Below are positions 13,712 through 60,156 of a stretch of 64,000 nucleotides of DNA, in pieces (within the stretch, counting starts at the first letter, position 1; every line of letters starts with the position of its first letter). The position numbers and the translations under genes are program-made. The notes below the pieces were generated by a model. That model worked only from the letters and a program-made list of their open reading frames with translations, made no database searches and had not been told where the DNA came from. The stretch lies in the IMG/VR virus record IMGVR_UViG_3300045988_131126, one strand, 5' to 3'. This stretch comes from a virus.

Positions 13712-15256
13712 TCAGTATACTTCCGATTCATAATCATGATATAATATTTTTCCTTTTTCTTTTTTAGACTCTAATCTAGCATGTCTATTTATTAATTCCA
13801 AATCACCTATCTCTACTTCTGTACATCTAGTAGCATATTTATCGAATATAGGTTTCTTATAATTATAATATTTCTTTATCTGATGAAAACTTTTATCTAC
13901 TATTTCTATATACATAGTATTATTTGCTCTGGTTCTACCTAATGTCTGTCTAGCCAAAACCTCTGATTTAAATGGTTCTGCTAATACTACAGTCATCTTT
14001 AATCCATCTATATCTACTGCAGCTCCTGCTGATTTAGTTGTAGATAATATTAATCTTTTATTTAAAGCTTGTTGTTTTTCTTCTTCTGATACCATAGAAG
14101 TATATACACCGACGTTATTTCTAAATTCCTGATGGTTTTCTATGATCCAGTTGTATACTTCTGATATGGCATTATTTGTACCTATATATACCAGGCATTT
14201 TTCATATAATCCAACATTTTCTTCTATTATTTCGAATAATATATCAAGCATCATATAGAAATTATCATTAGTTACTATTAGATTAGTGTACTTATTTCTG
14301 TCTAATCCATATTGGTTTTTACAGCTCGATATCTGTTGCGGAGTAGGTTTACTACTATACAATATACTTAAATATTCAGTATGAGGATCAGTTTCAGGAT
14401 CAAATAAATCTATTGCTAATACATTTTTAAATGATAATTGATAAATATTGTTTTCAAATTCATTTGATCTTAATGCTGTTGCAGTAATATAATAATTCTT
14501 ATAGGTATTTGTATAGTAATCTATTTTCATCATATTATCAAAATTTTGATGAGCCTCGTCGTAGAATTTCAATCCTATTCTTAAATATTGAAATAATTCA
14601 GTTATTTTATCCCATCCATGAGTATCACCATAACTCTTTAATGTAGAATGAGTTACTGTAAAATATTTGATTTTCCTTATTTCTTCTGGTGTTTTGGTTA
14701 ATAATCTATATATACAACCAGAGCCTTTTATATTATATATCTCCTTATCTGTTACATTCGTGTACTGCTTAATTCTATCTATCCATTGAGTTAACCAAGA
14801 ACTTTGCGAGGTTATAATGATAGATTTAATACCTAAATAAGCACTAGTAGCTATAGCTATATAAGTTTTACCTTTACCTGTATATAGATTTAATTGTAAT
14901 TGAGATTTAGTAGCTGTATCTCTATATTCTTCTTTACCTATAGTAAATCTTAATGCTTCTTTTTGTACATCGTTTCTTGGTAAAGTCTTTATCATAATAT
15001 CATTATACATATCGAACTCATCACTCATATTACGTTCTACAATAGCTTTTTGCTCCATTATTTTTTCGACAAAATAAACGTCTATACCTCTCGGGAGATA
15101 TAGAGTACGATTTTCCGTGTCATAAAATAATCCCTGATAGTAATATTGGTGATTCGTTGGGTTAAACATTAAGAAATATTTCTCTAAATCTGGATGTGAT
15201 CCAAATTCATAATCAGTTATTTTTATACATGTATTTTTAACTATTATTTTACTCAT
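13712..15256 (-). CDS. SF2 DEAH-box DNA helicase
   Basis: 514 aa. Walker A LYTGKGKTY (about 14865-14882), DEAH FYDEAHQNF (about 14546-14563), motif VI QTLGRTRA. The C-terminus ends ILYHDYESEVY (13715-13747), a variant of the recurrent motif. Confidence 0.8.
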   Translation of the reverse strand: MSKIIVKNTCIKITDYEFGSHPDLEKYFLMFNPTNHQYYYQGLFYDTENRTLYLPRGIDVYFVEKIMEQKAIVERNMSDEFDMYNDIMIKTLPRNDVQKEALRFTIGKEEYRDTATKSQLQLNLYTGKGKTYIAIATSAYLGIKSIIITSQSSWLTQWIDRIKQYTNVTDKEIYNIKGSGCIYRLLTKTPEEIRKIKYFTVTHSTLKSYGDTHGWDKITELFQYLRIGLKFYDEAHQNFDNMMKIDYYTNTYKNYYITATALRSNEFENNIYQLSFKNVLAIDLFDPETDPHTEYLSILYSSKPTPQQISSCKNQYGLDRNKYTNLIVTNDNFYMMLDILFEIIEENVGLYEKCLVYIGTNNAISEVYNWIIENHQEFRNNVGVYTSMVSEEEKQQALNKRLILSTTKSAGAAVDIDGLKMTVVLAEPFKSEVLARQTLGRTRANNTMYIEIVDKSFHQIKKYYNYKKPIFDKYATRCTEVEIGDLELINRHARLESKKEKGKILYHDYESEVY

Positions 15257-15317
15257 TGCACCTAATTCCCTTCTTTGAGAGCTTTATTTACTTATTTGTA
15301 CGTACAAAAATGATTCC

Positions 15318-15400
15318 GTAATATCTTTATTTTTGTCAAAATTATAGATCTTAATAAATCCTAATACAAATATATATTATATAGGTGAAAATAAAAAGAA
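15318..15400 (+). promoter_or_regulatory. degenerate copy of the repeated promoter-leader module
   Basis: ccgtaatatctttattttt, then ..aaatcct.., then atatatattatataggtgaaaataaaaag. It shares the T-tract box and the ATTATA(G)GTGA box, but the order differs and the hairpin is weak. Confidence 0.3.
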
Positions 15401-15414
15401 AGGAGCCGATAATT

Positions 15415-15720: not shown

Positions 15721-15760
15721 TACAAAATATATAATTACAAGAAAGGGGTATTATGTTTAT

Positions 15761-16093: not shown

Positions 16094-16196
16094 TTAATGA
16101 CGAAAACAAGCTACCTGAATAGCTTATTTTCAGTTTATTATTTTTATGAGTTATATATATCATATATGTGAAAATAAAAGAAAGGAGTATTATATT

Positions 16197-16853
16197 ATGG
16201 ATAATACAAAATATTTAAAAAGTGATATTGTTTCTAAACCAGTTATTAGAAGATGGGATCTTCATTATTGCTCATTAGATCAGGATATACTTCCTGATTC
16301 TGGTTCTGTTTTAATTGGGAAAGCTAATAGGCCATGCTTAATAGTTAGCTCTAATGAATATAATCAGATGTCAGATAAAGTATTAGTAATGCCTTATTGC
16401 AGTAATAACAGAGATGATTTAACAGATGAAGAGTACGTAAAGCAGGCTGCAGAAAGAGGAGAAACTTTAATACCAATGGTATTAAATAGAAATGCCAGAT
16501 CATTTCTTATCATTGATCAACCTAGATTAATTGCAAGAAAGATGCTCAGAGGATATGTAGGAACACTTGATGTAGAAGCAAACGAAAAATTAGCAATTAA
16601 AGTAACGGAAGCTGTATTTAATTATATGATTGATCCTGAAGTGTTTACGAAAACAGAAATATTCAAATCAATGGTTAACGAATACTTTGCTAATAATTTT
16701 ACTGTTGATGCTACAGACGAAAGTATTTCAACTCCTCCAAAAGATGTCGATGAAAAACCAAAGTCGGTCCCTAATACTATTCAGGAAGATTACGGAATAA
16801 TATGCATGAGAAGATCTAAAGAGGAAAATGCTAAATATGCATTAGCAATTTAG
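16197..16853 (+). CDS. MazF/PemK-like toxin-fold protein with C-terminal extension
   Basis: ATG 16197 after AAAGGAG. RRWDLHYCSL...GKANRPCLIVSSNEYNQMSDKVLVMPYCS...FLIIDQPRLIARKMLRGYVGTLD fits the PemK/MazF pattern (RPalVvS.d..N......v.PiTs ... DQiRtid..Rl...iG.l). An extra 70 aa or so follows. Confidence 0.55.
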   Translation: MDNTKYLKSDIVSKPVIRRWDLHYCSLDQDILPDSGSVLIGKANRPCLIVSSNEYNQMSDKVLVMPYCSNNRDDLTDEEYVKQAAERGETLIPMVLNRNARSFLIIDQPRLIARKMLRGYVGTLDVEANEKLAIKVTEAVFNYMIDPEVFTKTEIFKSMVNEYFANNFTVDATDESISTPPKDVDEKPKSVPNTIQEDYGIICMRRSKEENAKYALAI

Positions 16854-16883
16854 ATTAATTAAATACGAAAGAAGGAAGTATAA

Positions 16884-17447: not shown

Positions 17448-17450
17448 CTA

Positions 17451-18718: not shown

Positions 18719-18724
18719 AAAACG

Positions 18725-18765: not shown

Positions 18766-18767
18766 GC

Positions 18768-19130: not shown

Positions 19131-19133
19131 ATT

Positions 19134-19194: not shown

Positions 19195-21315
19195 TTAAAT
19201 ACTCATTATATTACTATATGGAATATTGTTGTTTCCGTTAGTCTGAATATTTACAGACTTAAGCGGGAAATTACCAATATTATCATTTATAATAGTTGTA
19301 TAATCAATAAACTCTACAACCCATTTAGGTACTGCTACATCTAACGGTATTGCTAATGATGTAAATTCATTACCTTTACTTGTAGCTTTTCCTTTAAAAA
19401 TACTTGTATCCTTTAATACGTTCTTTATCTTTTCGTATGTTTCTGGATAAGTATCTTTTATTTTTTCTACAGTTTCTTCATTTACAACTACTTTTACAAT
19501 ATCCATACTATTTCTAGCTGTTAAGTCAAATCCTTCAAGACCATCATCTTTAATATCATTCCATATAACCGCAGCTTTTATACCTTGTATACCCATAGGA
19601 TCATCATAATGATCCATAGATTTTACATTTACCGGTTTATAGAATTCTTTTTCTCCATTATTAAGAGATCTAAATATCTTTTTATCTAATATCGCTAATC
19701 TCTTTATAATTCTAACTTGATCTATTACATCTGTATCAAGTATCTCTTCATATAATATCTTAGATAAAGCTGACTGTATAGATTTATTTAAGGTTACCTT
19801 TCTAATTTGTAAACCTTTAATATCCATACTTTCTTCTTCTGGTACTTTATGACCTTCCTGAAGTTCCTGTTTAGATGCATAGTTCTTCATACCTTCTGTT
19901 AATAATGCTCTTTTCATAAGAAACTCATTTTTCATATAGATAAGACATTTTCTATCTTCTCCATAAGAATGATTAGCTTTAGTATATTCTACCATATAAT
20001 CATTTACCAAAGCACCTACTATATAAGCCATAATATTAACCAATGAATATCTTAAATTATCAGAACCAGTTTGCTTATTAGGATTTACCAATCTTTTTCT
20101 AATTACAATATCATCATTAATGAAATCATAATCTTCATAATCTTCTTCAATAGGTTTAGTTTCTCCTAATACTGGATTATCTATTTCATTTAAGATTTTG
20201 AATTTGTGACCTTTACATTTCTCAAGACCAAATCTGAACCAAGCTTCAAGACTAATAATAGCACTATCTGTATCAGAGATACCAGCAATATTTTTAATCA
20301 TATTATCGCATCTATCAACTTTATCCATATATTGATATTTAAAATATACAAACTCTTTTAAGATATCTACTAAAGTATCTATCTCTACTTTGATTTCTTT
20401 TGGTGGCTCGTTTGGATCCATAAATGGTTGATCTAATTTTTCCAATAAAATTAATAATGCATTCGTCATTGATGCATTATCCATGAACTCGTAAAGGTTA
20501 TTTTTGTAATACAGTCTATTTATATCTTCTTGATCAAGTCTATTAATAATATCCCATATGATCTGTAAATCCATTTCATCAGGTAACCATTTTATTAATC
20601 CTTGCTTATAATCACCTATAGTAAGTACAATTTTATTGAAACATTCTTCTTTAGAAATATTACGATCTAATATATCGCAGTCTCTATATCTTCTTTCTTT
20701 TCTTTCACTTACTACACTATCAATAAACCATACAACTTCTTCAAGAGAAGCAAATTTAACGTTATTAGATAGAAAGCTTTCGAAAAACATAGTTGCTGTA
20801 CTAATGAGTTCTCTACCTGTTGTAGTAATGGATTCTGCTACAAAGATATTATAAAACATTGCTTGACATTGACCAAGTACACCGTATATTCCATTACAGT
20901 CAATTTTATCAAGTAATTGCAATAGATTATATTTCACAAACATTTCAGATCCTTTTGGATACTTAAACATTTCTGCTTTATGAACACCTCGCATTTCCAT
21001 AAATCCTCTAATCATTTCTATTAAAGGATTAGGAACTGTTCCATGTCTCATAAACATTACTCCAGATGGAGTACATATTGGTTGCTGAGATGCTATATAA
21101 TTTGTAAACTCTGATAATAACATCTCATGTTCTTTCTTATTGTAGTTATTGACTATTTTACATTTAGTATCAACAAATCTTTTCTTTACAGAATAATCAA
21201 TAGCATCTTTTATCTCTTGATTATTTAGGCTTGGATATATTAAAGACATTACTGTATGCATTTGCTGCATATATCTCATAACGCCAGCCGAATTATCTAC
21301 TGCTGAATTAACCAT
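19195..21315 (-). CDS. family-B DNA polymerase, C-terminal fragment (fingers / palm motifs B and C / thumb)
   Basis: 706 aa. Motif B KIDCNGIYGVLGQ (Kx3NSxYG), motif C GISDTDSAII (about 20260-20280), KKRY-like GMKNYA. No exonuclease motifs and no motif A; those are in 40602..42539. Confidence 0.85.
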   Translation of the reverse strand: MVNSAVDNSAGVMRYMQQMHTVMSLIYPSLNNQEIKDAIDYSVKKRFVDTKCKIVNNYNKKEHEMLLSEFTNYIASQQPICTPSGVMFMRHGTVPNPLIEMIRGFMEMRGVHKAEMFKYPKGSEMFVKYNLLQLLDKIDCNGIYGVLGQCQAMFYNIFVAESITTTGRELISTATMFFESFLSNNVKFASLEEVVWFIDSVVSERKERRYRDCDILDRNISKEECFNKIVLTIGDYKQGLIKWLPDEMDLQIIWDIINRLDQEDINRLYYKNNLYEFMDNASMTNALLILLEKLDQPFMDPNEPPKEIKVEIDTLVDILKEFVYFKYQYMDKVDRCDNMIKNIAGISDTDSAIISLEAWFRFGLEKCKGHKFKILNEIDNPVLGETKPIEEDYEDYDFINDDIVIRKRLVNPNKQTGSDNLRYSLVNIMAYIVGALVNDYMVEYTKANHSYGEDRKCLIYMKNEFLMKRALLTEGMKNYASKQELQEGHKVPEEESMDIKGLQIRKVTLNKSIQSALSKILYEEILDTDVIDQVRIIKRLAILDKKIFRSLNNGEKEFYKPVNVKSMDHYDDPMGIQGIKAAVIWNDIKDDGLEGFDLTARNSMDIVKVVVNEETVEKIKDTYPETYEKIKNVLKDTSIFKGKATSKGNEFTSLAIPLDVAVPKWVVEFIDYTTIINDNIGNFPLKSVNIQTNGNNNIPYSNIMSI

Positions 21316-22149: not shown

Positions 22150-24357
22150 ATGGACGAATTATTTAATGATCTTTTAAATCCGGAGCCATTTATATCAAAG
22201 ATTCAATCTCGATTTAATGAGATACAACCTTTGATAATTGATGATCTGACGCACTATGAAAATTATGGTGAATATGTACCGCTAGTTAATACTGGAGCGA
22301 TCAGTATTAACACTTCTAATTTGAGTAAAGAGAATATTGATTCTCATTTTACTTGGATTTATAATATCATTGCTGATGGCATTGAGCAGAAAAAAGTTCA
22401 TGATATGATAGTATATATTACATTTATGGATAATGTACAAATTAGATTATCTATATTTGATTATATGCTTAATCTTATTATGTGGAAACTACCTTTGCAA
22501 GCCGGAGATTCTTTAACAAGTAATTTCCTATTCTTTGATGATTGCATCACGCAGGATTCTATCAAAGATTATATTGATTTTAAATTCATTGATATTCACA
22601 GAAGAGATTTTAATAACTGTGATATGAATCAAATGATTGATGAGACAATATACAAATTTATGTATATTGATGACTTTGCTTATTATCTTATCAATACTAT
22701 CAATGAAAAAGATACTATTGATTTAATGAAGAAGTCCCAAGTAGCATGGGATACATTGCATTTTTCTACGGTACAATATCCGTTGGAAGACAAGAAAGAT
22801 GCTGCTATGGATATGACAAACAAATTAATTGCAGTAATAAAAGCACCTGATTCTGAGCATTGTTTAAGGGATTCGTTCAGAGCTAGAGAAGGTGTTAACC
22901 CAAAACAGTTCAGGGAAATGATTTGCAATATTGCAACTAAACCCGATGGTAATGGAAGTATCTTTAGTATCGACCTCGATACAAACTATATGCAAGAGGG
23001 TGTAGCAAAACCTGAATATTATACTATTGATAGTAGTGCAGCAAGACAAGCACAGATCTTAAATAAAGAGAATGTAGGACAATCTGGAGCATTTTCTAGA
23101 AAATTAAGATTAAATAATATGCACGCTAAAATTCATCCAAACCCAAAATACGTTTGTAATTCAAAAAGATTCTTGCCAATATTTATTAAAGATATGAAAG
23201 TATTAGTAAGATTCAAAAACAGATATTTCAGATTTAATCCAAAAGGAATGGAGTATAAAGTATCTCCACATCCAGAAAGAGATAATGTAAATCTTATAGG
23301 AAAGACTTTATATTTTAGATCTCCGGAAACATGTGCTTCACATGCTAGAGGAGAAGGGATTTGTTATAGATGCTATGGGGATTTGGCATATACGAATGCA
23401 GATATTAACCCAGGATGTATGGCATCAGAGTTATTGTCTTCTGTATTAACCCAGCGATTATTGTCTGCTAAGCACTTATTAGAGACAAATGTAAAAGCAT
23501 TAAACTGGGTTCCGGAATTCAAAGATATTTTTGCTGTAAACTGGAATATGATTATGATTATGGATGATTTCATTCCAAAGAAATGGAAACTTATTATATC
23601 ATCAGATGATATTTATCAGGAATCAGAATATGATGAGTTTGATTATAACTCATGCATAACTACTTTCAATGTAATGGATCCTGATGGAAATACCATTCTT
23701 ATCAAAACAGAGGATTTAGACAACTTATATATTTCTCCAGAGTTAAGAAAAGTAATGGATAATCAGAAACTTGTAGATGATCAGTATATAATCGATTTCT
23801 CTGATATTATGGGGATTCATTTATTTATGGTCAATATTACAAATAATGGATTATCTGCAACTCTTGAACGATGCAAAGCTACTCTTGATAAACAAGCTAT
23901 TATTAAAGAGTATAAAAATGATATCGGATTATTTACACAAGGATTTATCAATACTATTATTGAGGGTGGACTTGATACAGATGCAGTTCATTGTGAAGTA
24001 CTTATATCAAATCAGTTACGTAGAGTCACAGACGATTTAGGAGATTCTATGTTACAACCTGAGTGGGAATATCCAAATGAACCATACAAGATCGTAACTC
24101 TTGATACAGCGTTAAAAGAGAACCCAAGTATCACTACATCATTGAATTATCAGTATATACAGAAACAGTTATTCAAACCAATTACATTTAAGAAAAATAA
24201 ACCTGGTATGATGGATTTATTCTTTATGGAAAAACCACAAGAATATATGAATGTAGAATTGGATTATAACCCGAAATTCAAAGATGACGTTGATGATGCA
24301 ATTGATGGATTTATTAATCCTATTTATCACGTAGATGAAAATGGTAATAAATTATAA
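22150..24357 (+). CDS. multisubunit RNA polymerase beta-prime-like protein, C-terminal half
   Basis: 735 aa. SPETCASHARGEGICYRCYGDLAY (23331-23390) matches the beta-prime segment ..C....GvC..CYGrDLa. There is no NADFDGD segment, so this is only the C-terminal part. Ends DGFINPIYHVDENGNKL (NPIYH at 24316-24330). Confidence 0.65.
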   Translation: MDELFNDLLNPEPFISKIQSRFNEIQPLIIDDLTHYENYGEYVPLVNTGAISINTSNLSKENIDSHFTWIYNIIADGIEQKKVHDMIVYITFMDNVQIRLSIFDYMLNLIMWKLPLQAGDSLTSNFLFFDDCITQDSIKDYIDFKFIDIHRRDFNNCDMNQMIDETIYKFMYIDDFAYYLINTINEKDTIDLMKKSQVAWDTLHFSTVQYPLEDKKDAAMDMTNKLIAVIKAPDSEHCLRDSFRAREGVNPKQFREMICNIATKPDGNGSIFSIDLDTNYMQEGVAKPEYYTIDSSAARQAQILNKENVGQSGAFSRKLRLNNMHAKIHPNPKYVCNSKRFLPIFIKDMKVLVRFKNRYFRFNPKGMEYKVSPHPERDNVNLIGKTLYFRSPETCASHARGEGICYRCYGDLAYTNADINPGCMASELLSSVLTQRLLSAKHLLETNVKALNWVPEFKDIFAVNWNMIMIMDDFIPKKWKLIISSDDIYQESEYDEFDYNSCITTFNVMDPDGNTILIKTEDLDNLYISPELRKVMDNQKLVDDQYIIDFSDIMGIHLFMVNITNNGLSATLERCKATLDKQAIIKEYKNDIGLFTQGFINTIIEGGLDTDAVHCEVLISNQLRRVTDDLGDSMLQPEWEYPNEPYKIVTLDTALKENPSITTSLNYQYIQKQLFKPITFKKNKPGMMDLFFMEKPQEYMNVELDYNPKFKDDVDDAIDGFINPIYHVDENGNKL

Positions 24358-48480: not shown

Positions 48481-48782
48481 AGTGTTTTCTCCTTTTCTTT
48501 TAGTGCTTTGCATACTTCTATGAAATCTTCCATTTTTGAAATTTTCATTGGTACCGGAACACATCCAGTCCAATCTATTTTAAATATTTCTTTGCATTTA
48601 TTGCATTTGAAATATCTAAAACTTCTGTTTTTAAGTTTACTTGTGTCATGAGTACTTAAAAGCATTTGATAATTAAAAGGTCTATTGTAATTATCAAACA
48701 ATTCAAGACTGTCCAAAGCATTACACTTTGGACAGCTCTCGTGATGATCATGATATATCAAGGGTCGTAATGTCTTCGTCAT
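48477..48782 (-). CDS. small zinc-ribbon protein
   Basis: 101 aa. CPKC..(45 aa)..CNKC. The N-terminus MTKTLRPLIYHDHHES carries the motif (48747-48764). Confidence 0.6.
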   Translation of the reverse strand: MTKTLRPLIYHDHHESCPKCNALDSLELFDNYNRPFNYQMLLSTHDTSKLKNRSFRYFKCNKCKEIFKIDWTGCVPVPMKISKMEDFIEVCKALKEKEKTL

Positions 48783-49491
48783 TTTCTATATCCTCTTCAT
48801 CAAATAAGATTTGTTCATATCCTAAACAGTCTCCTATAGTTGTAATTTCATTGTAATCGAATAATGATGTATACCAAACATTATTTTTACAATGTTCTTT
48901 TATATATCTGACAAACTGTTTTAAAGGCTCATACTCACGAATATGTTCTGGTAATTTAGAAATAGGTGTCAGCATTGCTGGAATGTAGAAACAACTAAGA
49001 TTATATGCTCTTTCTGCATAATTATCTATTTCACTCATTCCATCAATTAAACCTAATGCTGATAAACTATACATATATTCATTGGTAAGTACCTCGTATA
49101 CTTTAGTAATCAATGCAAATTCTCCACTGTATAATTCACCAGTAAATAAAATTGTGTAACAATCATCTCCGTATTTAACAGTGCATACTGACAGGAATAA
49201 AGATCCTGCAACGGCTTTCTGGTCATCTGTTAAATCGCTACTTTTAGAAGCTACTTCAACAAATTTATCGACAGATTCTTCATTAAGTTCGCATATAATG
49301 CAATGTACATGCTTATCTTCTACTTTTGTAATTCTACCGATATTAGATACTTTAATACCTCCTGCTGATAAGCACGCTACAGATACAGCTTTTGATAACT
49401 GATCATCTGCAAGTACTTCAATTGTTTCCTTCGGGTTTGGTTCATGCTGAATTAATTGGTTTAATGTTTCTGCTACTTTTGTGTAAATCAT
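48748..49491 (-). CDS. hypothetical protein (acidic C-terminus)
   Basis: ATG 49491 after CAGGAGG. ATGA overlap with the upstream stop. 247 aa. Confidence 0.65.
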   Translation of the reverse strand: MIYTKVAETLNQLIQHEPNPKETIEVLADDQLSKAVSVACLSAGGIKVSNIGRITKVEDKHVHCIICELNEESVDKFVEVASKSSDLTDDQKAVAGSLFLSVCTVKYGDDCYTILFTGELYSGEFALITKVYEVLTNEYMYSLSALGLIDGMSEIDNYAERAYNLSCFYIPAMLTPISKLPEHIREYEPLKQFVRYIKEHCKNNVWYTSLFDYNEITTIGDCLGYEQILFDEEDIENDEDITTLDIS

Positions 49492-50390
49492 AATTCTGTC
49501 CTCCTGTATACATAAATGATATATGTGATCTTGCCATCTCCCACTTTTTTCATGCAGGAAATACAAGCGTTCACCGAGTCATGTAACTTCTTAAGAAGAT
49601 TATCTTTATTACGTTTATCAGTTATTGCAACTGATACATCACAACTTGGATTATTGCAATCGAATATATAATTTGTCTTTGCAGAATGAGGTATCTTATT
49701 TTTATCCTCATCTTCTACAGACCCTACTAAATACGTATGAACGTATTCAATATTAGCCAAATTCTTTCTTTTTTCTATAAATAAGTTAACTGGTATATCC
49801 ATTTTAAGATAATCGTTATGTATATTAAAAGTTATTTGTATTTTATCATAAACTTTTATCAATTTAAGTAATGAATTAGGTAGTTCTTTAGGCAATACGC
49901 TAACGTTGAAAACTTTCTTATTTTTTGCAAAATCATCTATTTCTGATTCAATTTTTATAGATGGATTTATAATTTCTTCATCTTTAGAAGATAATATATT
50001 CTTGAAAGGTTTTTTAAATTTTATATCAGAGTTTATAATTTTCTCTGTATCAGAAATATAATTCTTAACGGATAATACTATTTTATCAGTAATTTCATTT
50101 TCTATTTTATCAGCTTCGTTATCCGGAATATGATCTTCATGCTTGTCTAAAATATATCCATATGGTAGCACTATTACATCAAAAATTTTATCAGTTTCAT
50201 ATATAAAGTTATTCCCAGATAGATATATTATTATGGATTCTGATCTTGATTCTAAACGTATTCTAATAAATACTTTATAATCTTCTGATGATATATTCAT
50301 TATATTATCGGTATCTGGATAATCTACATCATAATTATCTAGAAAGTCTTTAATACAGATAACTAAATCATTAGGTAGTGTTTTGATCAT
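49488..50390 (-). CDS. hypothetical protein
   Basis: 300-aa ORF with GAAGGAGAA RBS. Confidence 0.7.
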   Translation of the reverse strand: MIKTLPNDLVICIKDFLDNYDVDYPDTDNIMNISSEDYKVFIRIRLESRSESIIIYLSGNNFIYETDKIFDVIVLPYGYILDKHEDHIPDNEADKIENEITDKIVLSVKNYISDTEKIINSDIKFKKPFKNILSSKDEEIINPSIKIESEIDDFAKNKKVFNVSVLPKELPNSLLKLIKVYDKIQITFNIHNDYLKMDIPVNLFIEKRKNLANIEYVHTYLVGSVEDEDKNKIPHSAKTNYIFDCNNPSCDVSVAITDKRNKDNLLKKLHDSVNACISCMKKVGDGKITYIIYVYRRTEL

Positions 50391-50448: not shown

Positions 50449-50745
50449 TCATGAGTAGAATGGATTAAAGTCTTTCATTCTTTTGCTTTTCTTTTCCTTT
50501 ATCAGTTTCTTACTGGATCTCTTAATAAGATAGTGCATACCTTCTTTATCTGCATCATAAACTGATTTACATTCAGTACAAATCAGTTTGATTTCTACCT
50601 CATCGTCTAAATTATTAGATTTAGGTATACCTCTTTTATCTAAATCCATCATACTAATACTTTTTTCTACCAGTACCAAAATACCTTCGCATTTTGGACA
50701 CTGATTTAAACCTAATCTGTGAATTGGATGTATTGGAATATTCAT
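50449..50745 (-). CDS. small zinc-ribbon protein (same architecture as 48477..48782)
   Basis: 98 aa. CPKCEG..(40 aa)..CTECKS. The N-terminus is MNIPIHPIHRL. The extreme C-terminus is KDFNPFYS (50452-50472). Confidence 0.65.
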   Translation of the reverse strand: MNIPIHPIHRLGLNQCPKCEGILVLVEKSISMMDLDKRGIPKSNNLDDEVEIKLICTECKSVYDADKEGMHYLIKRSSKKLIKEKKSKRMKDFNPFYS

Positions 50746-50755
50746 TACTCTCTCC

Positions 50756-50983
50756 TTAGCTTATTTTCATAAGACTATAATACCCTTCAGCTACAATTAC
50801 AGCATCTGAATATCTACTTTCTCCTGTTGTATTCATTTCAGTAAACTCTTTCCATTTACCATTTACTAAAACTTTTTTAGGTTTATAACCCGCAGGATTT
50901 ACCGTTGATTCTATATCTTTTCTCTGTTTTCTCTGAGTTGTAGAGTACAGAAAATAAACATAACGTCCATTTGATTCTGGCAA
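50756..50983 (-). CDS. small hypothetical protein
   Basis: 75 aa with a TTG start 7 nt after GAGGAGGG. Confidence 0.5.
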   Translation of the reverse strand: MPESNGRYVYFLYSTTQRKQRKDIESTVNPAGYKPKKVLVNGKWKEFTEMNTTGESRYSDAVIVAEGYYSLMKIS

Positions 50984-51049: not shown

Positions 51050-52813
51050 TTATTCTGCTACAGCTATACTATTAGGGATACTCTCAATATTATCAATTTC
51101 CTTGTTAATACGAGCTATAGGCGTAATCAATTTCTCAATAGAACTAAGAGTATCTTGAATAACTGCTAAACGTTGTTCTTCAACATTAACTCCGTTTATA
51201 GTTCCTTGATATTCCAATGCATTTTTAAGACCTTCTAACTGAGCATATTGAGCTAATACTTGATCAACTTCTGCTCTCCAGTTATTTGGCTCTTTATAAT
51301 CACTAAAGAAGTTATTATGAATTGAAGCCATCGGGCAAAGCATTCCAGATAATCCTGGATCATTTGCTGTAGAGCTATCCAAATCCAATCTTCCCAAGTG
51401 AGTAGGATGTACTTGTCTATAATTTACTGGAATAGATGCAGTATTACCATCTCCAACTCCACTTACTCCTTTATAAGTGAATTTAAGAGCTGTAATAGCA
51501 TCCATATCATTTACGCTATTATTATAGTTTACCAGACTGTCTTTCGAGATCTGTTTCAATAGAAAATCTGGGAATGTATAAATAGCTTTCTCTAATCTAT
51601 CTATCTGCAATTTGGAAGCTTCATCAGATATTCTATAAAGGCCTGTAGCTAATTTAATAGCATAAATAGCTCCAAAATATTCTTCATATCTGATACGCTT
51701 TGTAGATATATCTAGATTGTCTTTCTTTCTTAATTCATTAAATTCCCTAAGAATCCATATAATTATATCATAGATATTCTTTTTACATTCTTCTGGAAGT
51801 TTTAAGTTTTCTTGAGTTGGAATATCCAATATAGATTCAAGAGAATCTAATACATTTAATCCTTTCTCTACAGTCTTATTGTTGTAAGAATCTCCAAGTA
51901 CTGCTATCCAATACTCTAATGTATAGACATTATTCAATGAGGTTTCCCTTGACACTGAATTATATACAGTATACATTAAACTCTGAGCTACAGGATCATT
52001 ATCATATATATACTTAGGTAATGAAATATACATATTATTTTTCTTTACCGTGTAATAATCATCCTTTTCGATATCATGATCTGAAATGTACAGATCATTT
52101 ACTTTTAATAATTGACAAGTTTGATAGAATCCAAATCTAGCCAATAAGTATCTCATAAGAGGACAATTCTTCTTAAAGATATTACTCATATACCAGATGC
52201 ATTCTTTAGTTTCTCCATTTGTCATTTTAAGCTTCTCTATATATCTATAGATTCTAGATGCCATAAATAAAGTTTTGAAAGCTATATTTTGTGACTTTGG
52301 ATTTGCAGAATTGGAATTATTATAAGTAGATCCATCCACTACCTGATATAGAGATGAATATATATTTCCAAATATTCTGAAATAATATTTGTCAACGATT
52401 TTAGGTACTTCTATAAGCACCCTGAGATTTTTAGATCTAGGAGATCCCTCTTTAGGATTAGGGACCTCCAGATAATAATCAACGATTAATAATCTTATAT
52501 CGGAATCTTTTAACGGGATATAATTATATTTATCGTCGATTTTCTGTTTATTTTTATTCTTAGATTTGAATTTCTCTTGCTCACGCAATAATATACGTAT
52601 TTGCTGATAATCATCCACCACAGAAAAATTCATTACTTTAATGACAAAGTAACGATCTCTCTCGATAGATAATATAACCTTTTTCAAAACTTCTATTATT
52701 GCATCATCAGATCTATTAAATAATTCTGGGTTAAATTGTGGCCTATTCTTATCATTATATTCTCTTATAAAAGAATATTGATTAGGTTCGATCACTTCTC
52801 TATTCACATTCAT
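51050..52813 (-). CDS. multisubunit RNA polymerase beta-like protein, N-terminal half
   Basis: ATG 52813 after CAGGAGG (the track's 52834 start contains the RBS). YRQVHPTHLGRLDLDSSTANDPGLSGMLCP (51377-51409 core) matches beta vRDVHPTHYGRvCPIETPEGPNIGLI. It ends shortly after this segment. Confidence 0.7.
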   Translation of the reverse strand: MNVNREVIEPNQYSFIREYNDKNRPQFNPELFNRSDDAIIEVLKKVILSIERDRYFVIKVMNFSVVDDYQQIRILLREQEKFKSKNKNKQKIDDKYNYIPLKDSDIRLLIVDYYLEVPNPKEGSPRSKNLRVLIEVPKIVDKYYFRIFGNIYSSLYQVVDGSTYNNSNSANPKSQNIAFKTLFMASRIYRYIEKLKMTNGETKECIWYMSNIFKKNCPLMRYLLARFGFYQTCQLLKVNDLYISDHDIEKDDYYTVKKNNMYISLPKYIYDNDPVAQSLMYTVYNSVSRETSLNNVYTLEYWIAVLGDSYNNKTVEKGLNVLDSLESILDIPTQENLKLPEECKKNIYDIIIWILREFNELRKKDNLDISTKRIRYEEYFGAIYAIKLATGLYRISDEASKLQIDRLEKAIYTFPDFLLKQISKDSLVNYNNSVNDMDAITALKFTYKGVSGVGDGNTASIPVNYRQVHPTHLGRLDLDSSTANDPGLSGMLCPMASIHNNFFSDYKEPNNWRAEVDQVLAQYAQLEGLKNALEYQGTINGVNVEEQRLAVIQDTLSSIEKLITPIARINKEIDNIESIPNSIAVAE

Positions 52814-53441
52814 AACTGCCTCCTGTAACGTCAATACTCATTGCTGTACCAATCGGGTTAGGAACGTCCGGCTTGGAATCCTGTAACGTAAGAGTTAACT
52901 TCATATCTAAAGCATCAGCCATTCGTTCCATCATAGTTAATGATACCGTATTTTTATTGAAAATACGTTTGTCATTATTATAATTAGATCCGAATCTATG
53001 CTCATAGTTATCTAGGTTAATATGTTTCTTATTCACCGCTTCTTTTAAAAGTCTCATAGCAGGTGAATCTTTTTCGTCAATAGGATATACTGACGTATTG
53101 TCCGGATTGGTCAATACGTCTTTTTCCATATTGATAACCGTTTGCTGTAAATTAGCCAACTCATCATAGCTTTTAGCTTTACTGAAATCTACTAATTTAT
53201 CTTTACTATATGCTTTTTTATCTTCTGCTGAGGTTGGTAAATATACTCTAGAAATCGTCGGACCGACATCTATACCAACCTTGTTTGCATTATTTAAAGT
53301 ATTACCCGTTAATATAGGTAACACATAATCCTCATCTTCAATTGCTACATGTCCAGATACATAAGCATCTGGATTCTTAGTGTAAGTCTCTAATGAAACT
53401 ACATCATAAAACTTTTTATTTAATTCTGCAACGCCAGCCAT
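52800..53441 (-). CDS. hypothetical protein
   Basis: 213-aa ORF with AAAGGAG RBS. Overlaps the RNAP-beta-N start by 14 nt. Confidence 0.7.
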   Translation of the reverse strand: MAGVAELNKKFYDVVSLETYTKNPDAYVSGHVAIEDEDYVLPILTGNTLNNANKVGIDVGPTISRVYLPTSAEDKKAYSKDKLVDFSKAKSYDELANLQQTVINMEKDVLTNPDNTSVYPIDEKDSPAMRLLKEAVNKKHINLDNYEHRFGSNYNNDKRIFNKNTVSLTMMERMADALDMKLTLTLQDSKPDVPNPIGTAMSIDVTGGSYECE

Positions 53442-53520: not shown

Positions 53521-54120
53521 TTATTCTGTGGCATTTTCAGATGAACTATCATCATCTTTAATCAGTCTCTTAACTGCTCCATCTGGAATGAATGACATAA
53601 CTTTCTCACCATCGATCACATCAACTGTTGCTACGAAATATGGATCGTGCTTAAGTTCGAATGTACTTCCTTCAACAGCATTCTGATCGAGGAAATCTTT
53701 CAGTAATGAGAAGAATAATGTTGATAACTGAGATAATACATCTGGTGCACTAAATCTTACTTTGAAGTCATCGAAACCACGTTTTGCAATAACTTCCTTT
53801 GGACCGGATTCATAGATACTGTATGTTTTACAATCCTTAATATCTTCTGGATCGAATGTAAACTCTACAGACCAGTTGCCCGGATTACCATCTTCGCCCT
53901 CGATATACTCTACAGTAGCAGCTGCTACCATATTTCCTTTGATATCTTCGAATACTAAAGCGGTTTTTTCTTTCTTGGATTTTACCTGTTTTAAGAAATC
54001 GACAGTTCCAGTAATACTGAACTGAATTACCTCAACTACATCTCCAAAGTTTACTGTCCATGACAGTCCTTTGCACTCCTGGATCATGTTTGCGATTAAG
54101 CTGCTGTCTGTTAATTTCAT
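53521..54120 (-). CDS. hypothetical protein, probably highly expressed; acidic C-terminal tail
   Basis: 199 aa with TAAGGAGG RBS. G/C3-richer codon usage. Own terminator. Ends KDDDSSSENATE. Confidence 0.75.
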   Translation of the reverse strand: MKLTDSSLIANMIQECKGLSWTVNFGDVVEVIQFSITGTVDFLKQVKSKKEKTALVFEDIKGNMVAAATVEYIEGEDGNPGNWSVEFTFDPEDIKDCKTYSIYESGPKEVIAKRGFDDFKVRFSAPDVLSQLSTLFFSLLKDFLDQNAVEGSTFELKHDPYFVATVDVIDGEKVMSFIPDGAVKRLIKDDDSSSENATE

Positions 54121-54255: not shown

Positions 54256-56628
54256 TCAGAATGATTTAGTTTCTAACCCTATATAATTTTTAAAGTCATT
54301 AACTGTCATCATTTTAATGTTATATTTTAATGCTTTTTCACATTTGCTACCTTGATTATATCCATCGTACGGAACCAATAAGATAGCTGTGTCTTTTGTT
54401 ACTCCTGCATTTCCATCTGCATCGTAACCCATTTCGTCTAAGATAGATTCAAGAAATTTATCTCTAAATCCTGTAAATCTAATCTTCTTACGAATTTTAA
54501 AACTACCATAAGAATTCTTATAGTTGAATTCATTTACTATGAAATGAATATCATCCTTAAATGAATTCCACTCTTCTATGATAGTTTCTGTTGTATTTGG
54601 ACCTATACCTTTAATGGTACAGAACATATCTTTTACGTCATCGATATACCCTCCATCTAAATATTGAATTATATCAACTAATGCAATCTTTTCGAATATA
54701 ATTCTCCAAGTTTTAGCTGATAAGTTACTAAATCCCAAAGCTCCGATTAATATATAATCTGGAGTTTCGTTATTTTTGATAGAATCTAATTGATCTTTGA
54801 ATTTAGCTGCATTTGTAGGACCTATAATTTCAACCATTTTATCATATGGATAATCATACAGTTCTTTTAAAGATCCAATCCCTAACGCTGCCATTCTTTC
54901 TTCGGCAATATCCTTGATTCCTAATTTAGCTATCATATTAGAAATCCTCTTTGCTTCTTTACCGACACAATGAAGATTCATACAATAAGCTGCTTTACCA
55001 GACTTAGATATCGTAATCTTACCACCACAGAATGGGCATTTATCTGGAAATACTTCATCTGCTTCTGGTGGTCTATTATGATTATCTCTATTAAATTGAA
55101 TATCTGGTTTTGATACATACGGCATCACATCATGATTATAATCAATATCAATTACATCTCCTTTATAGAGATTTAACTTATTGAAATGCTCATAAGAATA
55201 CCCTGTTGTATGATCATGTATAGCTCCTAAGAACTCTACAGGATCAAAATAAAACATTGGAACTATCATTCCAGATTGACCAATACTATATTTGTAACCT
55301 CTAAATACCGAATGACGTCTCATTGGATTAAATTTTACTGCCATCTTATATTGATCAATGGAATTCTTTCTACCAAGTTTCTTTCTAATCTCAGGATCGT
55401 ACATCTCTGCAACTATTCCATCATACATGAACGGAAGAAACGAGCGCGCAAATTCAGCTTCTTCTGCATATCTTTTAATTTGGAATAATATACTTTGATA
55501 ATTTCCTGAAATAGTCTGATGCTTAAACATGATCTCTCTAGTATAATACCGATTCATGAACTCGATTTCTACTAAACGATCTAATGGTTCTCCATTCTCA
55601 TCTTTTAAAGATGTCTGTAATGGAACCAATGTTATAAAATCTCTATATCGGTATGAATCAGATCTACCTAATATACCAATAATTGCAGTTCTTCCATTTA
55701 TATAATGATTTCCTGTTAATCTATTGATATTATCGAGGTTATTATAGCTTACAATAGCTTCAAACTTCATACCGATAGTTTCCCCTAAATCTACAGCATT
55801 GGGAAACTTATACCCTTTAAATATAGGTGTCAAATCACTTGCTTTCTCAAGATCTGTATCACCTCTTGTCCTTGCAGATATCACCTCTGTATTTACATCA
55901 GCCTCTATAGATATTCCATCATACTTTAAGCTGAGTATTACATCTAACTGATCTGTAGGCTTTATTATATTACTCAATATCATCGGAGCAATCCAATCTC
56001 GCTCCAATACTACCACATTGCTTTGATTGAAAACTCCTCTTTCAATCGCATCAGCACTTAATACAAATTTAGACTTGTGTAATGTACCAACAAGTTCTGG
56101 ATGCTCGTGCTGAGTATTTCTTAATCTCTTCGTGACATCATTGCTCTCTGGTAATAAATCCTTTGCAAAAATGTCATTACTATTAAACTCTCTTCTGATG
56201 TTTATGATGCTTGGAAACATCATATTATTCATCTTTTCAATTTCATCATCCGGTACATGCATTATCGGATTTGACATTTTAGTTTCTTCAGTCTCCATAA
56301 ATTGGGAAGCTGAACCTGCTAAATTTTGCGGAGTCGCTCCAGATTGAATATCTGGTACATACTCCCTCACTTTTTCTAATAATAAATCGTATACTCCATC
56401 ATCTAATAATAATATATCTAAATCACTATTATTATATAAATTATTAGATATTTGGATTATTAGTACACCTTTTTCTACGTCCTCCTTATTCCATACCGGC
56501 TTACTCATTAGGCTCATTGTTTCGTTATTGATCATTTCTTTTGAATCGAATATGATATCTGTTAATGAACCTGAATTAGTAACCAGATTGTTTTTTAAAG
56601 ACTTAAGTATAGTAATATTGTTATCCAT
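54256..56628 (-). CDS. ligA: NAD-dependent DNA ligase
   Basis: 790 aa. Adenylation motif LKYDGISIE (about 55910-55930), Ia-like DDGVYDLLLEKVREY, Zn finger CPFCGG..CMNLHC, HhH region, and a BRCT-like C-terminus. An extra insertion carries SNPIMHVPDDE (56251-56271). Confidence 0.9.
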   Translation of the reverse strand: MDNNITILKSLKNNLVTNSGSLTDIIFDSKEMINNETMSLMSKPVWNKEDVEKGVLIIQISNNLYNNSDLDILLLDDGVYDLLLEKVREYVPDIQSGATPQNLAGSASQFMETEETKMSNPIMHVPDDEIEKMNNMMFPSIINIRREFNSNDIFAKDLLPESNDVTKRLRNTQHEHPELVGTLHKSKFVLSADAIERGVFNQSNVVVLERDWIAPMILSNIIKPTDQLDVILSLKYDGISIEADVNTEVISARTRGDTDLEKASDLTPIFKGYKFPNAVDLGETIGMKFEAIVSYNNLDNINRLTGNHYINGRTAIIGILGRSDSYRYRDFITLVPLQTSLKDENGEPLDRLVEIEFMNRYYTREIMFKHQTISGNYQSILFQIKRYAEEAEFARSFLPFMYDGIVAEMYDPEIRKKLGRKNSIDQYKMAVKFNPMRRHSVFRGYKYSIGQSGMIVPMFYFDPVEFLGAIHDHTTGYSYEHFNKLNLYKGDVIDIDYNHDVMPYVSKPDIQFNRDNHNRPPEADEVFPDKCPFCGGKITISKSGKAAYCMNLHCVGKEAKRISNMIAKLGIKDIAEERMAALGIGSLKELYDYPYDKMVEIIGPTNAAKFKDQLDSIKNNETPDYILIGALGFSNLSAKTWRIIFEKIALVDIIQYLDGGYIDDVKDMFCTIKGIGPNTTETIIEEWNSFKDDIHFIVNEFNYKNSYGSFKIRKKIRFTGFRDKFLESILDEMGYDADGNAGVTKDTAILLVPYDGYNQGSKCEKALKYNIKMMTVNDFKNYIGLETKSF

Positions 56629-56720
56629 GGATAAACCTCCTTTTCTAAATTTTATATTCTTAAGTCACCTATATAATATATCACCATTACAAAAAATAAA
56701 AGGGGGTAAAACCCCCTTTT

Positions 56721-57125: not shown

Positions 57126-57129
57126 AGTT

Positions 57130-57777: not shown

Positions 57778-57834
57778 ATGTATTTCCTCCTTTTTATAGT
57801 GTATATTTTTTGTGTCATCTATATTAAAAGAATC

Positions 57835-57871
57835 GGAGTCTATTATTATATAGACTCCGATAACTTATTAT
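57835..57871 (-). terminator. terminator hairpin (minus strand)
   Basis: atcggagtcta-ttattata-tagactccgat overlapping the stop of the RNAP gene. The minus strand is followed by tctttt. Confidence 0.55.
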
Positions 57872-60156
57872 TTTTTAAGAAGCTCTTTCATCGCTTTATT
57901 TGCTCTATCATTAACCTCTGTTGAATACGTTTCTATATCTTTACTCTGTGTACTTGCATCCATTTTCCAAAGCGGTACATGATAAATTGGATTAGCTTTA
58001 AATTTCTTATCTACTTCTAGATCACGTTTAATAGATTTATTAAAATCGTATTTTTCTTCATTAGAAATATGATATATCGGATTATATGATGTATAATCAT
58101 GATAAATCGGGAATTTCTGAACTGGATCTTTCCAAGTTCTTCTTACTTTCTTGAATTTCAGTCTAAGGCCAATGGTCTTAAATCTTACATTGAAAATCTC
58201 GGCAGATCTATCTACAGATTTTTCATCAAGTTTAATATCTACATTATATGGATCATCCGTATATATACTCTGCATTAATAATCTACCATGTGGTGATGAT
58301 GAATAAAGCATCATCATTTCTTTTACAATAGCGACAGGCATATGTGTCATATCACCATTTTCCATTTCACCCATTCTAATAGGTGTACTCTGATGAACAG
58401 ATTTAAAGTTTTTAGAAGCTTTATTTCTACTGTTCTGATTTCTAATATTTGTAGAAGACAATGATGTTACTGAGAACTTATCTTCAGCGTACTGTTTCAA
58501 CCTATAAAAGTATAATCTTCCACATACAATAGGTCTTCTACTTGGTACCATTCGTACATTACCGGTACTTCCTTTAATTGGTACATATAAATATCTAGGC
58601 GTTACATACGAAAATCTATCATAAATCTCCCCTAATCTATCTGTAGTTATAGATTCTGATATTGGTTCCATACTTAGAACAATATGATCTGATTCGATCA
58701 TTCCTAATAAATATTCTTTCTTATATGAAATATCCCAACTATTAAGCAGATATCTTAACTGTGCAGCTTGTAACGGAGAACACATTTCAATGAAATCGGT
58801 CACTTCTTTTAATGCTTCATCCACAGTAAACGGAGTTGTGGATATATATCTTAAAATTTCTGATCCAATAAAGTTCAATTCAAGTTCTTTTAACTGTCCA
58901 TCGTTCAGTCTATTTGTACATGTAGATGAATTTAATATTACTTCAACTCTTGTATTGGATCCTTCTAATACTGGCATTAATTCATCAGGAATTATTCTAC
59001 TGATAACTCCTTTACCGCCATATCTATTTGTAATTTTATCCCCAACCATTGGGACAGATTCTTCCATTACAGTAAAATGAATTACTGTACCTGAATACAC
59101 TTTACCTTTCTCTATATATTGAGCATTTGATATCTCGGATTTTGCTCTATTATAGATAGCATCAAGTCTACCTTTAATCTTTGTGTAACCAAGATCCTTT
59201 AATTGATCTACAGTTTCTACAATTTCTCTCAAGTATCGTTGTTTATTATTATAATAATAAAGCAACTGAGCATTAGTTCTTTTCTCCTGTAATTTCTCTG
59301 GAGAGTTGCAGTTAATGTCAATATCAATAACTTTGCCTGATTTAACCATCCATTTAGTATCAGACATAACAGTTTCTCTTAATTTCTTTTTAGATTGCAT
59401 AAATAATGCATCTTCATTTTTCTCTCTACGAGTAGCAAATAAAATACCATTCCCAACTTCTTCTCCAATATCAGGAAATGATTTGATAAATTCATCATCA
59501 CCTCTAAGATTAAGAGGGATATCATTATCATTGGCAATAGCTTTAACTTTTTTAAACAACGGTGCCGCCAATTTCTTAGCTGCAGATTCAGAGATATTGA
59601 TAGCATCTTCCATCGTACTAGCAGCTGCTATGTATGCTGTTACGAGGTTAACACCAACACCCTGATTATTATAATGATCATAGCTTGTGGACTTAGCTAT
59701 GATTTCTCCCTCTGGAATAGTATCTTCTACTCTATAGGAGTCTATTTGCGAATTATTCATAGCATATCCATAAGATTCTGAATTATGCTTATAGCATTTC
59801 CTTTCAATAATTTGAATAGAATCGTCCTTATCATCAGTACAAATAAGAAAATAATGATGACCAGGAACCTTTTCAAACTTCTCAATTTTACGTCTAATAC
59901 GTAAATCCCCATCTGTTTTCTTAATAGATGCAGATAAATCACCAAATCTGATTTCATAACCAGTTTGAATAATTGGTGGTTCTGAATTTAATATATCTAA
60001 TGCGTGTTCTGTCTGAATACCTGCTAATATTTTTCGAGGTCCAGAGTTGTTGTTATTGAATGGCATTAAGTTTCCTTTACCTAATGCATATTCCATTTTA
60101 GTAATTCTTTTTGCTTCATTTTCAAGAAGCGCTTTGTCGTTGTCCGTCCTTGCCAT
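57868..60156 (-). CDS. multisubunit RNA polymerase beta-like protein, C-terminal half
   Basis: ATG 60156 lies 9 nt after AAGGAGG (the track's 60180 start has no RBS). NRYGGKGVISRI (about 59003-59029) corresponds to beta RHGNKGVvSki. RMGEMENGDM corresponds to GEMEVWAL. The C-terminal tail has FPIYH (58099-58113), NPIYH (58069-58083) and NPIYH (57979-57993). Confidence 0.8.
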   Translation of the reverse strand: MARTDNDKALLENEAKRITKMEYALGKGNLMPFNNNNSGPRKILAGIQTEHALDILNSEPPIIQTGYEIRFGDLSASIKKTDGDLRIRRKIEKFEKVPGHHYFLICTDDKDDSIQIIERKCYKHNSESYGYAMNNSQIDSYRVEDTIPEGEIIAKSTSYDHYNNQGVGVNLVTAYIAAASTMEDAINISESAAKKLAAPLFKKVKAIANDNDIPLNLRGDDEFIKSFPDIGEEVGNGILFATRREKNEDALFMQSKKKLRETVMSDTKWMVKSGKVIDIDINCNSPEKLQEKRTNAQLLYYYNNKQRYLREIVETVDQLKDLGYTKIKGRLDAIYNRAKSEISNAQYIEKGKVYSGTVIHFTVMEESVPMVGDKITNRYGGKGVISRIIPDELMPVLEGSNTRVEVILNSSTCTNRLNDGQLKELELNFIGSEILRYISTTPFTVDEALKEVTDFIEMCSPLQAAQLRYLLNSWDISYKKEYLLGMIESDHIVLSMEPISESITTDRLGEIYDRFSYVTPRYLYVPIKGSTGNVRMVPSRRPIVCGRLYFYRLKQYAEDKFSVTSLSSTNIRNQNSRNKASKNFKSVHQSTPIRMGEMENGDMTHMPVAIVKEMMMLYSSSPHGRLLMQSIYTDDPYNVDIKLDEKSVDRSAEIFNVRFKTIGLRLKFKKVRRTWKDPVQKFPIYHDYTSYNPIYHISNEEKYDFNKSIKRDLEVDKKFKANPIYHVPLWKMDASTQSKDIETYSTEVNDRANKAMKELLKK

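Follow-up and report, generated by a model that had tools for sequence, protein, structure and literature searches.

A short peptide motif recurs on the replication and transcription proteins encoded in a 64,000-nucleotide stretch of viral DNA (IMG/VR record IMGVR_UViG_3300045988_131126; hereafter the window), which comes from an uncultivated jumbo phage distantly related to AR9/PBS1 and the Staphylococcus S6 group. In this phage the motif reads [P/L]-[I/L]-[Y/M]-H. It is enriched, is under selection as a peptide, stands at conserved positions in orthologous proteins, is restricted to enzymes of DNA and RNA, lies in flexible context and is recoded in step across genes from one lineage to the next. 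We consider it probable that this short linear motif docks the transcription and replication enzymes on one common hub, which is likely encoded by the phage and co-evolves with the motif.

Enrichment and carriers of the motif in the window

Enrichment was assessed in a set of 60 non-overlapping proteins from the window (19,538 residues), with 2000 shuffles of the residues within each protein as controls. The tetrapeptide PIYH, which the original prediction had estimated from composition to occur well under once, was found six times against 0.04 expected. Its two patterns, [NF]P[IF][YM][HS] and [LI][IL]YHD, gave 8 and 4 hits against 0.06 and 0.03 expected, respectively, confirming their enrichment, and IYH was present in 13 copies in 10 proteins against 1.26 expected. 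None of the 2000 shuffles attained the observed count for any of the four patterns. A ranking of all k-mers, blind to the motif as first described, placed IYH as the top 3-mer (P = 6e-10, compared to 2e-4 for the runner-up) and PIYH as the top 4-mer (P = 4e-12). All previously listed copies exist, in place and in frame.

Synonymous codons vary among the copies (Pro CCT/CCA/CCG/CCC, Ile ATT/ATA/ATC, His CAT/CAC, Tyr TAT/TAC) and the matching AT-rich DNA words have many out-of-frame occurrences, so that selection acts on the peptide, as had been proposed. An explanation at the DNA level, for example by a promoter or repeat word, was rejected because the codons vary and the words lie elsewhere out of frame without pattern. 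The AT-rich genome and the commonness of Ile, Tyr and Asn could speak for an origin by chance, composition bias or such a word, yet this explanation is to all intents refuted by the shuffles, by the codon usage and by the orthologous positions and cross-gene co-variation (see below), which hold in dozens of genomes.

The copies were also thought to lie in unstructured tails. A bias towards the ends of proteins is present but moderate, with 7 of the 12 strict hits in the first or last 45 residues of a protein, a zone that holds 27% of all residues (P = 0.02). The structural context was modelled with AlphaFold2 (AF2) for the C-terminal fragment of the RNA polymerase (RNAP) beta subunit (beta-C) and the N-terminal fragment of the family B DNA polymerase (PolB-N), using alignments of 78 and 63 homologues, respectively. 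The bodies of both proteins were confidently modelled, and the motif stretches were coil outside the folded cores, with low predicted local distance difference test scores (pLDDT; about 46-65 for beta-C residues 670-712 and 730-744, and 40-56 for PolB-N residues 585-637). The motifs are therefore not buried and pack neither on their own protein nor on one another in the models, which bears out the disorder expected of them. Copies within one genome are degenerate around two to three anchor residues, which is typical of pocket-binding motifs, and acidic residues make up 25% of the five positions after the core, against a background of 14%. The motif thus has the generic properties of short linear motifs: it is short, degenerate around few anchors, located in disordered regions and recurrent in functionally related proteins.

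Three carriers are subunits of the non-virion RNAP. The beta-C fragment (57868-60180, - strand; PHROG 3295, E = 4e-96; tblastn to AR9/PBS1, 32% identity) is a homologue of AR9 gp089, whose gene g089 is annotated as a non-virion RNAP subunit. It ends in a tail of ~100 residues with FPIYH (58099-58113, -; AF2 coil, pLDDT about 46-55), NPIYH immediately before a conserved acidic segment, SNEEKYDF (58069-58083, -), and a further NPIYH followed by the degenerate half-copy VPLWK (57979-57993, -). The tagged tail is absent from AR9 because gp089 stops before it. The C-terminal fragment of beta-prime (beta-prime-C; 22150-24357, + strand; PHROG 3015; tblastn to AR9 g154, annotated as a non-virion RNAP subunit) carries NPIYH 12 residues before its C-terminus (24316-24330, +), where orthologues carry each lineage's own motif. 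The N-terminal fragment of beta (beta-N; 51050-52834, -), a homologue of AR9 gp105 (tblastn to AR9 83578-84819, which is g105), has a degenerate copy, TPIARI, near its C-terminus (51107-51124, -), and the copies of its relatives are clear (RPFIHTDE, TRGMLYF, KPVLFADQGE, KAFSYID).

The replication enzymes are tagged in the same manner. PolB-N (40602-42539, -; Pfam DNA_pol_B_exo1, PHROG 3011) has two copies of NPIYH, at 40728-40742 (-) and 40686-40700 (-), in the tail modelled as coil. In the superfamily 2 helicase (ResIII; 13712-15256, -; Pfam PF04851, PHROG 16), ILYHD lies 10 residues before the C-terminus (13733-13747, -), and the tails of orthologous helicases bear the lineage motif. The NAD-dependent DNA ligase (54256-56628, -; PHROG 3869, E = 2e-74) displays NPIMH at residue about 121, within an insertion in its N-terminal region (56257-56271, -), and orthologous ligases have one to two copies of their lineage motif at residues about 113-172.

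Three smaller proteins carry the motif at their N-terminus; the starts of open reading frames (ORFs) were assigned mechanically, and N-terminal positions are in part approximate. In a zinc-ribbon protein of 101 aa (48477-48782, -; CPKC and CNKC knuckles; conserved in 16 loci), LIYHD abuts the first zinc knuckle (48747-48761, -), and its orthologues read KPFNYD, KPFVYE, SPFIHT, SMFIQV and NPIIFN. A second zinc-ribbon protein of 98 aa (50449-50745, -; conserved in 11 loci) has a tandem, half-degenerate pair, IPIHPIH, before its zinc knuckle (50719-50739, -), with RGMIYLD, KPFYYL, EPMIFHG, KPFIHYS and MKAFSKL in orthologues. A 324-aa protein (42675-43649, +; no confident family; conserved in 24 loci) begins MDLIYHDY, which contains LIYHD (42681-42695, +), and its orthologues contain MKPFTRE and YQKAFSYD.

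The IPIHPIH pair is the real copy of the 98-aa zinc-ribbon protein. The NPFYS at its C-terminus (50452-50466, -), which had been counted as a copy, belongs instead to a separate conserved motif, (D)(F)NPF: NPF is kept in 12 of 14 lineages (orthologues in loci L002, L004, L005, L007, L009, L012, L014-L016, L019 and L031) whatever the lineage's own motif, which places it outside the co-varying system. This conserved tail recalls the DDDIPF tip of bacterial single-stranded DNA-binding protein (SSB). The protein therefore combines a lineage-specific N-terminal tag with a conserved C-terminal one, a layout expected of an adaptor.

Recoding of the motif between lineages

Related loci were fetched with alignment queries, as single-protein queries returned the same phage only. 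The last 100 residues of 120 beta-C homologues have one shared architecture, in the order of a motif pair, a single motif abutting an acidic segment (S-E/D-E-E-K-G-F-D), a helix and a second motif pair. Repeated tripeptides are approximately three times as frequent in these tails as in shuffled tails or in an internal segment, and all motif copies within one tail switch together. Besides the PIYH of the source phage, the versions found were PMYH/PMMH, PV(M/Y)Y, [RK]G[VIM]xY, [KR]PF and [KR]AF[ST], and further [PKQ]LM, RLF, PFIH, PIxF, PMxF, MFI and KIWK. The PMYH/PMMH version occurs in relatives with a 75%-identical RNAP, in which I has become M in all copies; overall, recoding was seen between lineages whose RNAP cores are 45-75% identical. 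The expectation that relatives keep the motif in the same tails thus held for its position, where a short motif is always present, but not for its sequence, which differs by lineage. At 58030-58068 of the window and in its homologues, a conserved acidic segment and two helices lie amid the variable beta-C copies, so that conserved and recoded elements are mixed in one tail.

Proteins were assigned to the same contig by an identical "longest contig" value (metagenome proteins) or by the IMG/VR contig name, and proteins linked in this way carry the same version. On the [RK]G[VIM]xY contig of P0015, the beta-C tail contains RGVLVKGVSYH, RGVMY and RGVYYDGVTY, the PolB-N tail RGVTY, KGVQY and RGVQY, and beta-prime-C NGVIYEDEE; the helicase of this version, from the GMxY contig of L002/L175, has PGMVY, PGMIY and RGMVYDE. 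In the PLM lineage, beta-C has PLMVKV and KLMTKV, PolB-N RLMVKV and PLMIKV, and beta-prime-C VPLMRPV (the helicase was not linked). In the [KR]AF lineage, RAFTTKAFS and KAFLH of beta-C go with RAFSS, KAFSF and KAFIY of PolB-N, with KAFTI and KAFSF of beta-prime-C and with a [KR]AF match 15 residues from the C-terminus of the helicase. In the KPF lineage, KPFTRKPFT of beta-C goes with KPFIFM, RPFIVL and RPFVRH of PolB-N, with IKPFTIKKERIRPFTFEH of the helicase and with a [KR]PF match 15 residues from the C-terminus of beta-prime-C.

This co-variation was tested by permuting the genome labels and counting the tail tripeptides in common. It was significant for beta-C and PolB-N (n = 11, p = 2.5e-4), for PolB-N and beta-prime-C (n = 8, p = 5.5e-4), for beta-C and the helicase (n = 7, p = 0.002) and for beta-C and beta-prime-C (n = 4, p = 0.04, the lowest attainable value). 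The tests err on the conservative side, as some motifs are common to several lineages, and IMG/VR pairs, linked by contig name, gave the same answer as the metagenome proteins. An exact 3-mer ranking per locus and an own-versus-other 3-mer count seeded from the RNAP tail (Wilcoxon p = 0.002) were discarded as noisy, since common 3-mers contaminate the seed, and were replaced by the contig-linked tail comparisons and lineage-specific patterns.

In eight lineages, the lineage-specific pattern occurred at ~4-100 times the shuffled expectation, in the same orthologous families and at the same ends. The carriers were the beta-C tail (3-5 copies), the helicase C-terminus (1-3 copies), the ligase insertion near residues 113-172 (1-2 copies), the PolB-N C-terminus (up to 3 copies), the C-termini of beta-prime-C and beta-N, the N-termini of both zinc-ribbon proteins, where the motif abuts the first zinc knuckle, and the N-terminus of the 324-aa protein. 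Two further sites were tagged in some of the lineages only: the N-terminus of a 241-aa protein encoded next to the helicase and, in the C-terminal fragment of the family B polymerase (PolB-C), an internal loop. The sheath, the terminase, virion proteins, UvsX, PhuZ and three conserved families of no known function had none, or isolated matches at chance level, and the structural-looking genes in the 10 kb past the right edge of the window contained neither the motif nor an obvious hub. The IMG/VR samples 3300045988, 3300029305 and 3300031555 each contain several phages of the clade with different versions (KPF, KAF and MFI together in 3300045988); different codes therefore coexist in one community.

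Docking on a common hub and competing explanations

A peptide that is exposed, degenerate, repeated, restricted by function and changing in step across more than 10 unlinked genes favours docking on one co-evolving site. The motif core consists of a small residue and then two or three that are hydrophobic or aromatic, often with acidic ones after them. We propose that the nucleic-acid enzymes encoded by the phage would each expose between one and five copies of it on flexible termini or loops. The clients would be the three non-virion RNAP subunits, the split PolB, the helicase, the NAD ligase, the two small zinc-ribbon proteins and a few proteins of no known function. All copies would bind the same site on one common partner, which would most likely be phage-encoded and co-evolve with the motif, and each lineage would have its own code because motif and pocket drift together. 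Binding could tether the transcription and replication machinery to one place, for example a hub on or around replicating phage DNA, and tails with several copies would add avidity. We infer here a separate receptor, its encoding by the phage and co-localisation as the outcome.

The original prediction of a docking motif is strongly supported by the in-step recoding as far as it concerns a peptide-level motif common to replication and transcription proteins; the shared partner it called for is putative. Several points weigh against docking on a phage-encoded hub. A receptor search among the nearby clade-specific families A5-A9 (see below) gave no significant Pfam or PDB match and no obvious correlation with the motif class, and the window is about a quarter of a genome of roughly 274 kb. 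Linkage of metagenome proteins through matching "longest contig" values is indirect, the terminal bias within the window alone is moderate (P = 0.02), and some of the listed copies are weak, namely the internal ones and the beta-N copy in the source phage. Furthermore, pairing of the copies with each other, with no separate receptor, would likewise give co-variation.

Such pairing, by beta-zipper or strand addition, would make the copies homotypic stickers that cross-link multivalent tails into a mesh or condensate, with selection simply keeping the copies alike. Self-recognition predicts exactly the co-variation of all copies that was found, tandem pairs five residues apart with turn-like linkers are frequent (GVYYDGVTY, KPFTRKPFT, PMEIYPMEF), and valency is high on the largest enzymes. 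However, AF2 showed no strand pairing among the three copies of one tail, only low-confidence coil; the cores of 3-4 residues, Pro-initial and degenerate around their anchors, fit a pocket better than a zipper; and single-copy proteins could not cross-link. We therefore think this explanation unlikely. Tails acting as zippers between the fragments of split genes were rejected, as the unsplit helicase, ligase and zinc-ribbon proteins carry the tag and RNAP and PolB share it.

Docking on a common hub works most like the clamp-binding motifs (CBMs), although the phage motif appears to fall outside that family. CBMs of the bacterial beta clamp sit in C-terminal tails, disordered N-termini and internal loops and follow the consensus Q-phi-x-[L/M]-[F/L] or Q-phi-x-[L/M]-x-[F/L] (PMC11139829). 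In both systems polymerases, ligase and further enzymes of DNA carry one short linear motif, placed in their tails, N-termini or loops; all partners of a clamp bind one hub pocket, and in T4 the motif is also present on transcription factors (the gp43, gp33 and gp55 tails bind gp45). However, the phage copies read [NF]PI[YM]H or [LI][IL]YHD, none being Gln-initial or fitting the CBM consensus, and they fit neither the PCNA-interacting peptide (PIP; Qxx[ILM]xx[FY][FY]), with no FF pair, nor an extreme C-terminal hydrophobic tail, several copies being N-terminal or 30-80 residues from the C-terminus. Up to five copies are present per protein, also on core RNAP subunits, and while clamp motifs are conserved across phyla the phage motif is recoded between close lineages. 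Pfam and PHROG scans of window proteins (part of the window ORFs, ~1/4 of the genome) hit no clamp family, and phiKZ-like jumbo phages are reported to have no classical clamp (PMC7824862). The T4 precedent that had been invoked for the motif is thus an analogy only.

The hub could instead belong to the host, with the motif docking on its beta clamp, SSB, a chaperone or a protease adaptor and with the lineage differences reflecting different hosts. The placement on termini and loops resembles that of CBMs, and ligase, polymerases and helicases are classical clients of the clamp or SSB. The misfit to Q-phi-x-[LM]-[FL] and PIP argues against this, as does the rapid recoding: a host pocket would be highly conserved, yet I changed to M in all copies between relatives with 75%-identical RNAP, and at least a dozen versions exist among otherwise equally related phages. 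A host hub is thus quite improbable.

If the common partner were a component of a phage-built replication compartment, the motif would be an address tag read by the gate or shell of that compartment (a non-chimallin, nucleus-like structure or a condensate), which is a special case of docking. The clients are exactly the enzymes expected inside such a compartment and the structural proteins are untagged; the phage encodes a PhuZ-like tubulin (PHROG 4733; weak match to Pfam Tubulin); and lineage codes would exclude foreign proteins, with phages of different codes sharing metagenome samples. The chimalliviruses, with their chimallin shell and the import factors PicA/Imp1 and Imp3-6, likewise combine a split multisubunit RNAP with a PhuZ-like tubulin and single out DNA and RNA enzymes. 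However, their import is reported to read folded surface patches and to use no terminal signals (PMC13282480), while the feature shared here is a linear peptide in flexible termini. In addition, the nearest cultured relatives (PBS1/AR9, PALS_2 and phiR1-37) have a multisubunit RNAP but no chimallin (PMC10299810), no homologue of chimallin (ChmA), PicA/Imp1 or another shell or importer protein was seen among the window proteins scanned (~1/4 of the genome), and the compartment itself is hypothetical. Sorting into a compartment is hence rather unlikely, and the link to nucleus-forming phages that had been drawn for the motif is doubtful.

Short terminal peptides also direct several cargo enzymes to one shell site in encapsulins and bacterial microcompartments, and these peptides differ between systems. 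That cargo is metabolic, however, usually has one peptide copy and is encoded beside the shell gene, whose product in encapsulins has the HK97 fold and binds the peptide at its lumen; no shell gene is evident here beyond the phage structural genes. Encapsulin loading peptides and the capsid targeting sequences of T4 show that a short terminal peptide can serve as a capsid-packaging signal, and timed proteolysis or cleavage through a degron or processing site would also be conceivable for the phage motif. Three to five copies per tail and copies in internal loops would be unusual for degrons, the RNAP subunits are homologous to the non-virion enzyme of AR9, the virion proteins in the window have no motif, and no residue suited to modification or cleavage is kept from one lineage to another. 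This group of explanations is very improbable.

The likeness to SUMO- and LC3-interacting motifs, in which acidic residues likewise come after a hydrophobic core of 3-4 residues, is by pattern only. These motifs bind by strand addition, and multiple copies can drive condensates, but they are eukaryotic and bind ubiquitin-like folds, and no such domain was identified here. NPIY also literally matches the eukaryotic NPxY motif, which binds phosphotyrosine-binding (PTB) domains, and the NPF motif, which binds Eps15 homology (EH) domains, has its counterpart in the separate conserved C-terminus of the 98-aa zinc-ribbon protein. However, Asn and Tyr of the co-varying motif are not conserved across lineages and no PTB or EH domain was detected, and the match is most likely coincidental. 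In agreement with the original prediction, no published description of such a motif or signal was found in the literature.

Should the tag dock on one hub as we favour, its clients would list the components of an organising centre of jumbo-phage replication and transcription, and the tail peptides would be a direct route to that centre. One motif changing in step across ten or more unlinked genes would be an unusually clean natural case of co-evolution between motif and receptor, and its versions a set of presumably orthogonal peptide tags, reusable in engineering. The motif also bears on the question of how a phage with no chimallin gathers its enzymes and separates them from those of the host; no linear signal has been found in the nucleus-forming phages studied so far. 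More tentatively, and with doubt prevailing, the system may be a programmable address code, in which a tag of 4-5 residues per lineage and a phage-encoded reader gather or import enzymes into a private replication compartment or factory, diversified to bar co-infecting relatives, parasites and host proteins. If true, the tag would be the first case of a linear signal that localises proteins to a phage replication compartment, and it would isolate phage lineages from one another at the subcellular level.

Further features of the window and neighbouring conserved proteins

The window has a G+C content of ~30% and no close match among sequenced phages; in metagenomes, hundreds of relatives are present on contigs of 200-290 kb. 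Its genes include a split family B DNA polymerase, split RNAP subunits, NAD ligase, superfamily 2 helicase, UvsX, SbcC, PhuZ-like tubulin, terminase, tail sheath and virion proteins, and the RNAP fragments are ~28-32% identical to AR9 g089 (beta-C), g105 (beta-N) and g154 (beta-prime-C) of the non-virion enzyme. The PhuZ-like tubulin (62835-63998) is kept in 52 related loci; the closest cultured relatives of the phage have no chimallin shell. A 774-aa protein (3407-5731) combines matches to three kinds of enzyme (endonuclease, acetyltransferase and Nudix hydrolase) and is not conserved among the related loci that were fetched.

Some further matches are of uncertain status. The internal copies noted in the original prediction in 39861-40589 (LIYH, 40122-40133, -; one weak orthologue with an internal RPF) and in 47176-48480 (LIYHD, 47953-47967, -; no orthologues among the fetched loci) do exist, but without good orthologue support; these, and one in 37447-39783, may have arisen by chance. 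HIYH near the N-terminus of 48748-49566 (49516-49527, -) is a possible copy with an uncertain start codon and no orthologue support. YIYH (16152-16163, +) is another, at the N-terminus of a 235-aa protein (16146-16853) with a PemK/MazF-like toxin domain (Pfam E = 6e-8), which begins MSYIYH and has no orthologues in the fetched loci. The PolB-C fragment of the window (19195-21315) has only a degenerate stretch, NPVLGETKPIEED, at residues about 380-400, and its orthologues in four lineages (L211, L175, L171 and L168) have lineage-motif copies in an internal insertion.

As receptor candidates, five clade-specific families encoded near tagged genes were aligned: A5 (213 aa), A6 (199 aa), A7 (241 aa), A8 (356 aa) and A9 (75 aa). 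Searches of A5 and A6 profiles against the PDB and per-member Pfam scans of A6, A7 and A9 gave nothing significant, and no obvious correlation with the motif class was seen in families A5-A9 (the A9 alignment was inspected by eye). A9 (50756-50983) is conserved, apparently strand-rich and adjoins the beta-N gene, and two of its members have a faint, non-significant match to SH3_KIN17 (E = 0.12); it is a candidate peptide-binding module. Iyer et al. (2021) reportedly noted that a small SH3-fold protein is encoded beside PolB in phiKZ-like phages. A7 (12123-12848), conserved beside the helicase, has an SSB-like layout, in which a folded N-terminal part is joined by a linker of variable sequence to a conserved C-terminal tail, KSFFDxxD (degenerate in the source phage, KSAFGKE). 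In some lineages A7 also bears the lineage motif at its N-terminus. A6 (53521-54120), which has no Pfam or PDB match, is conserved between the ligase and beta-N and combines a conserved N-terminal E-[ST]-x-I-P-x-x-Y with a conserved acidic C-terminal tail, IKDDAAxE.

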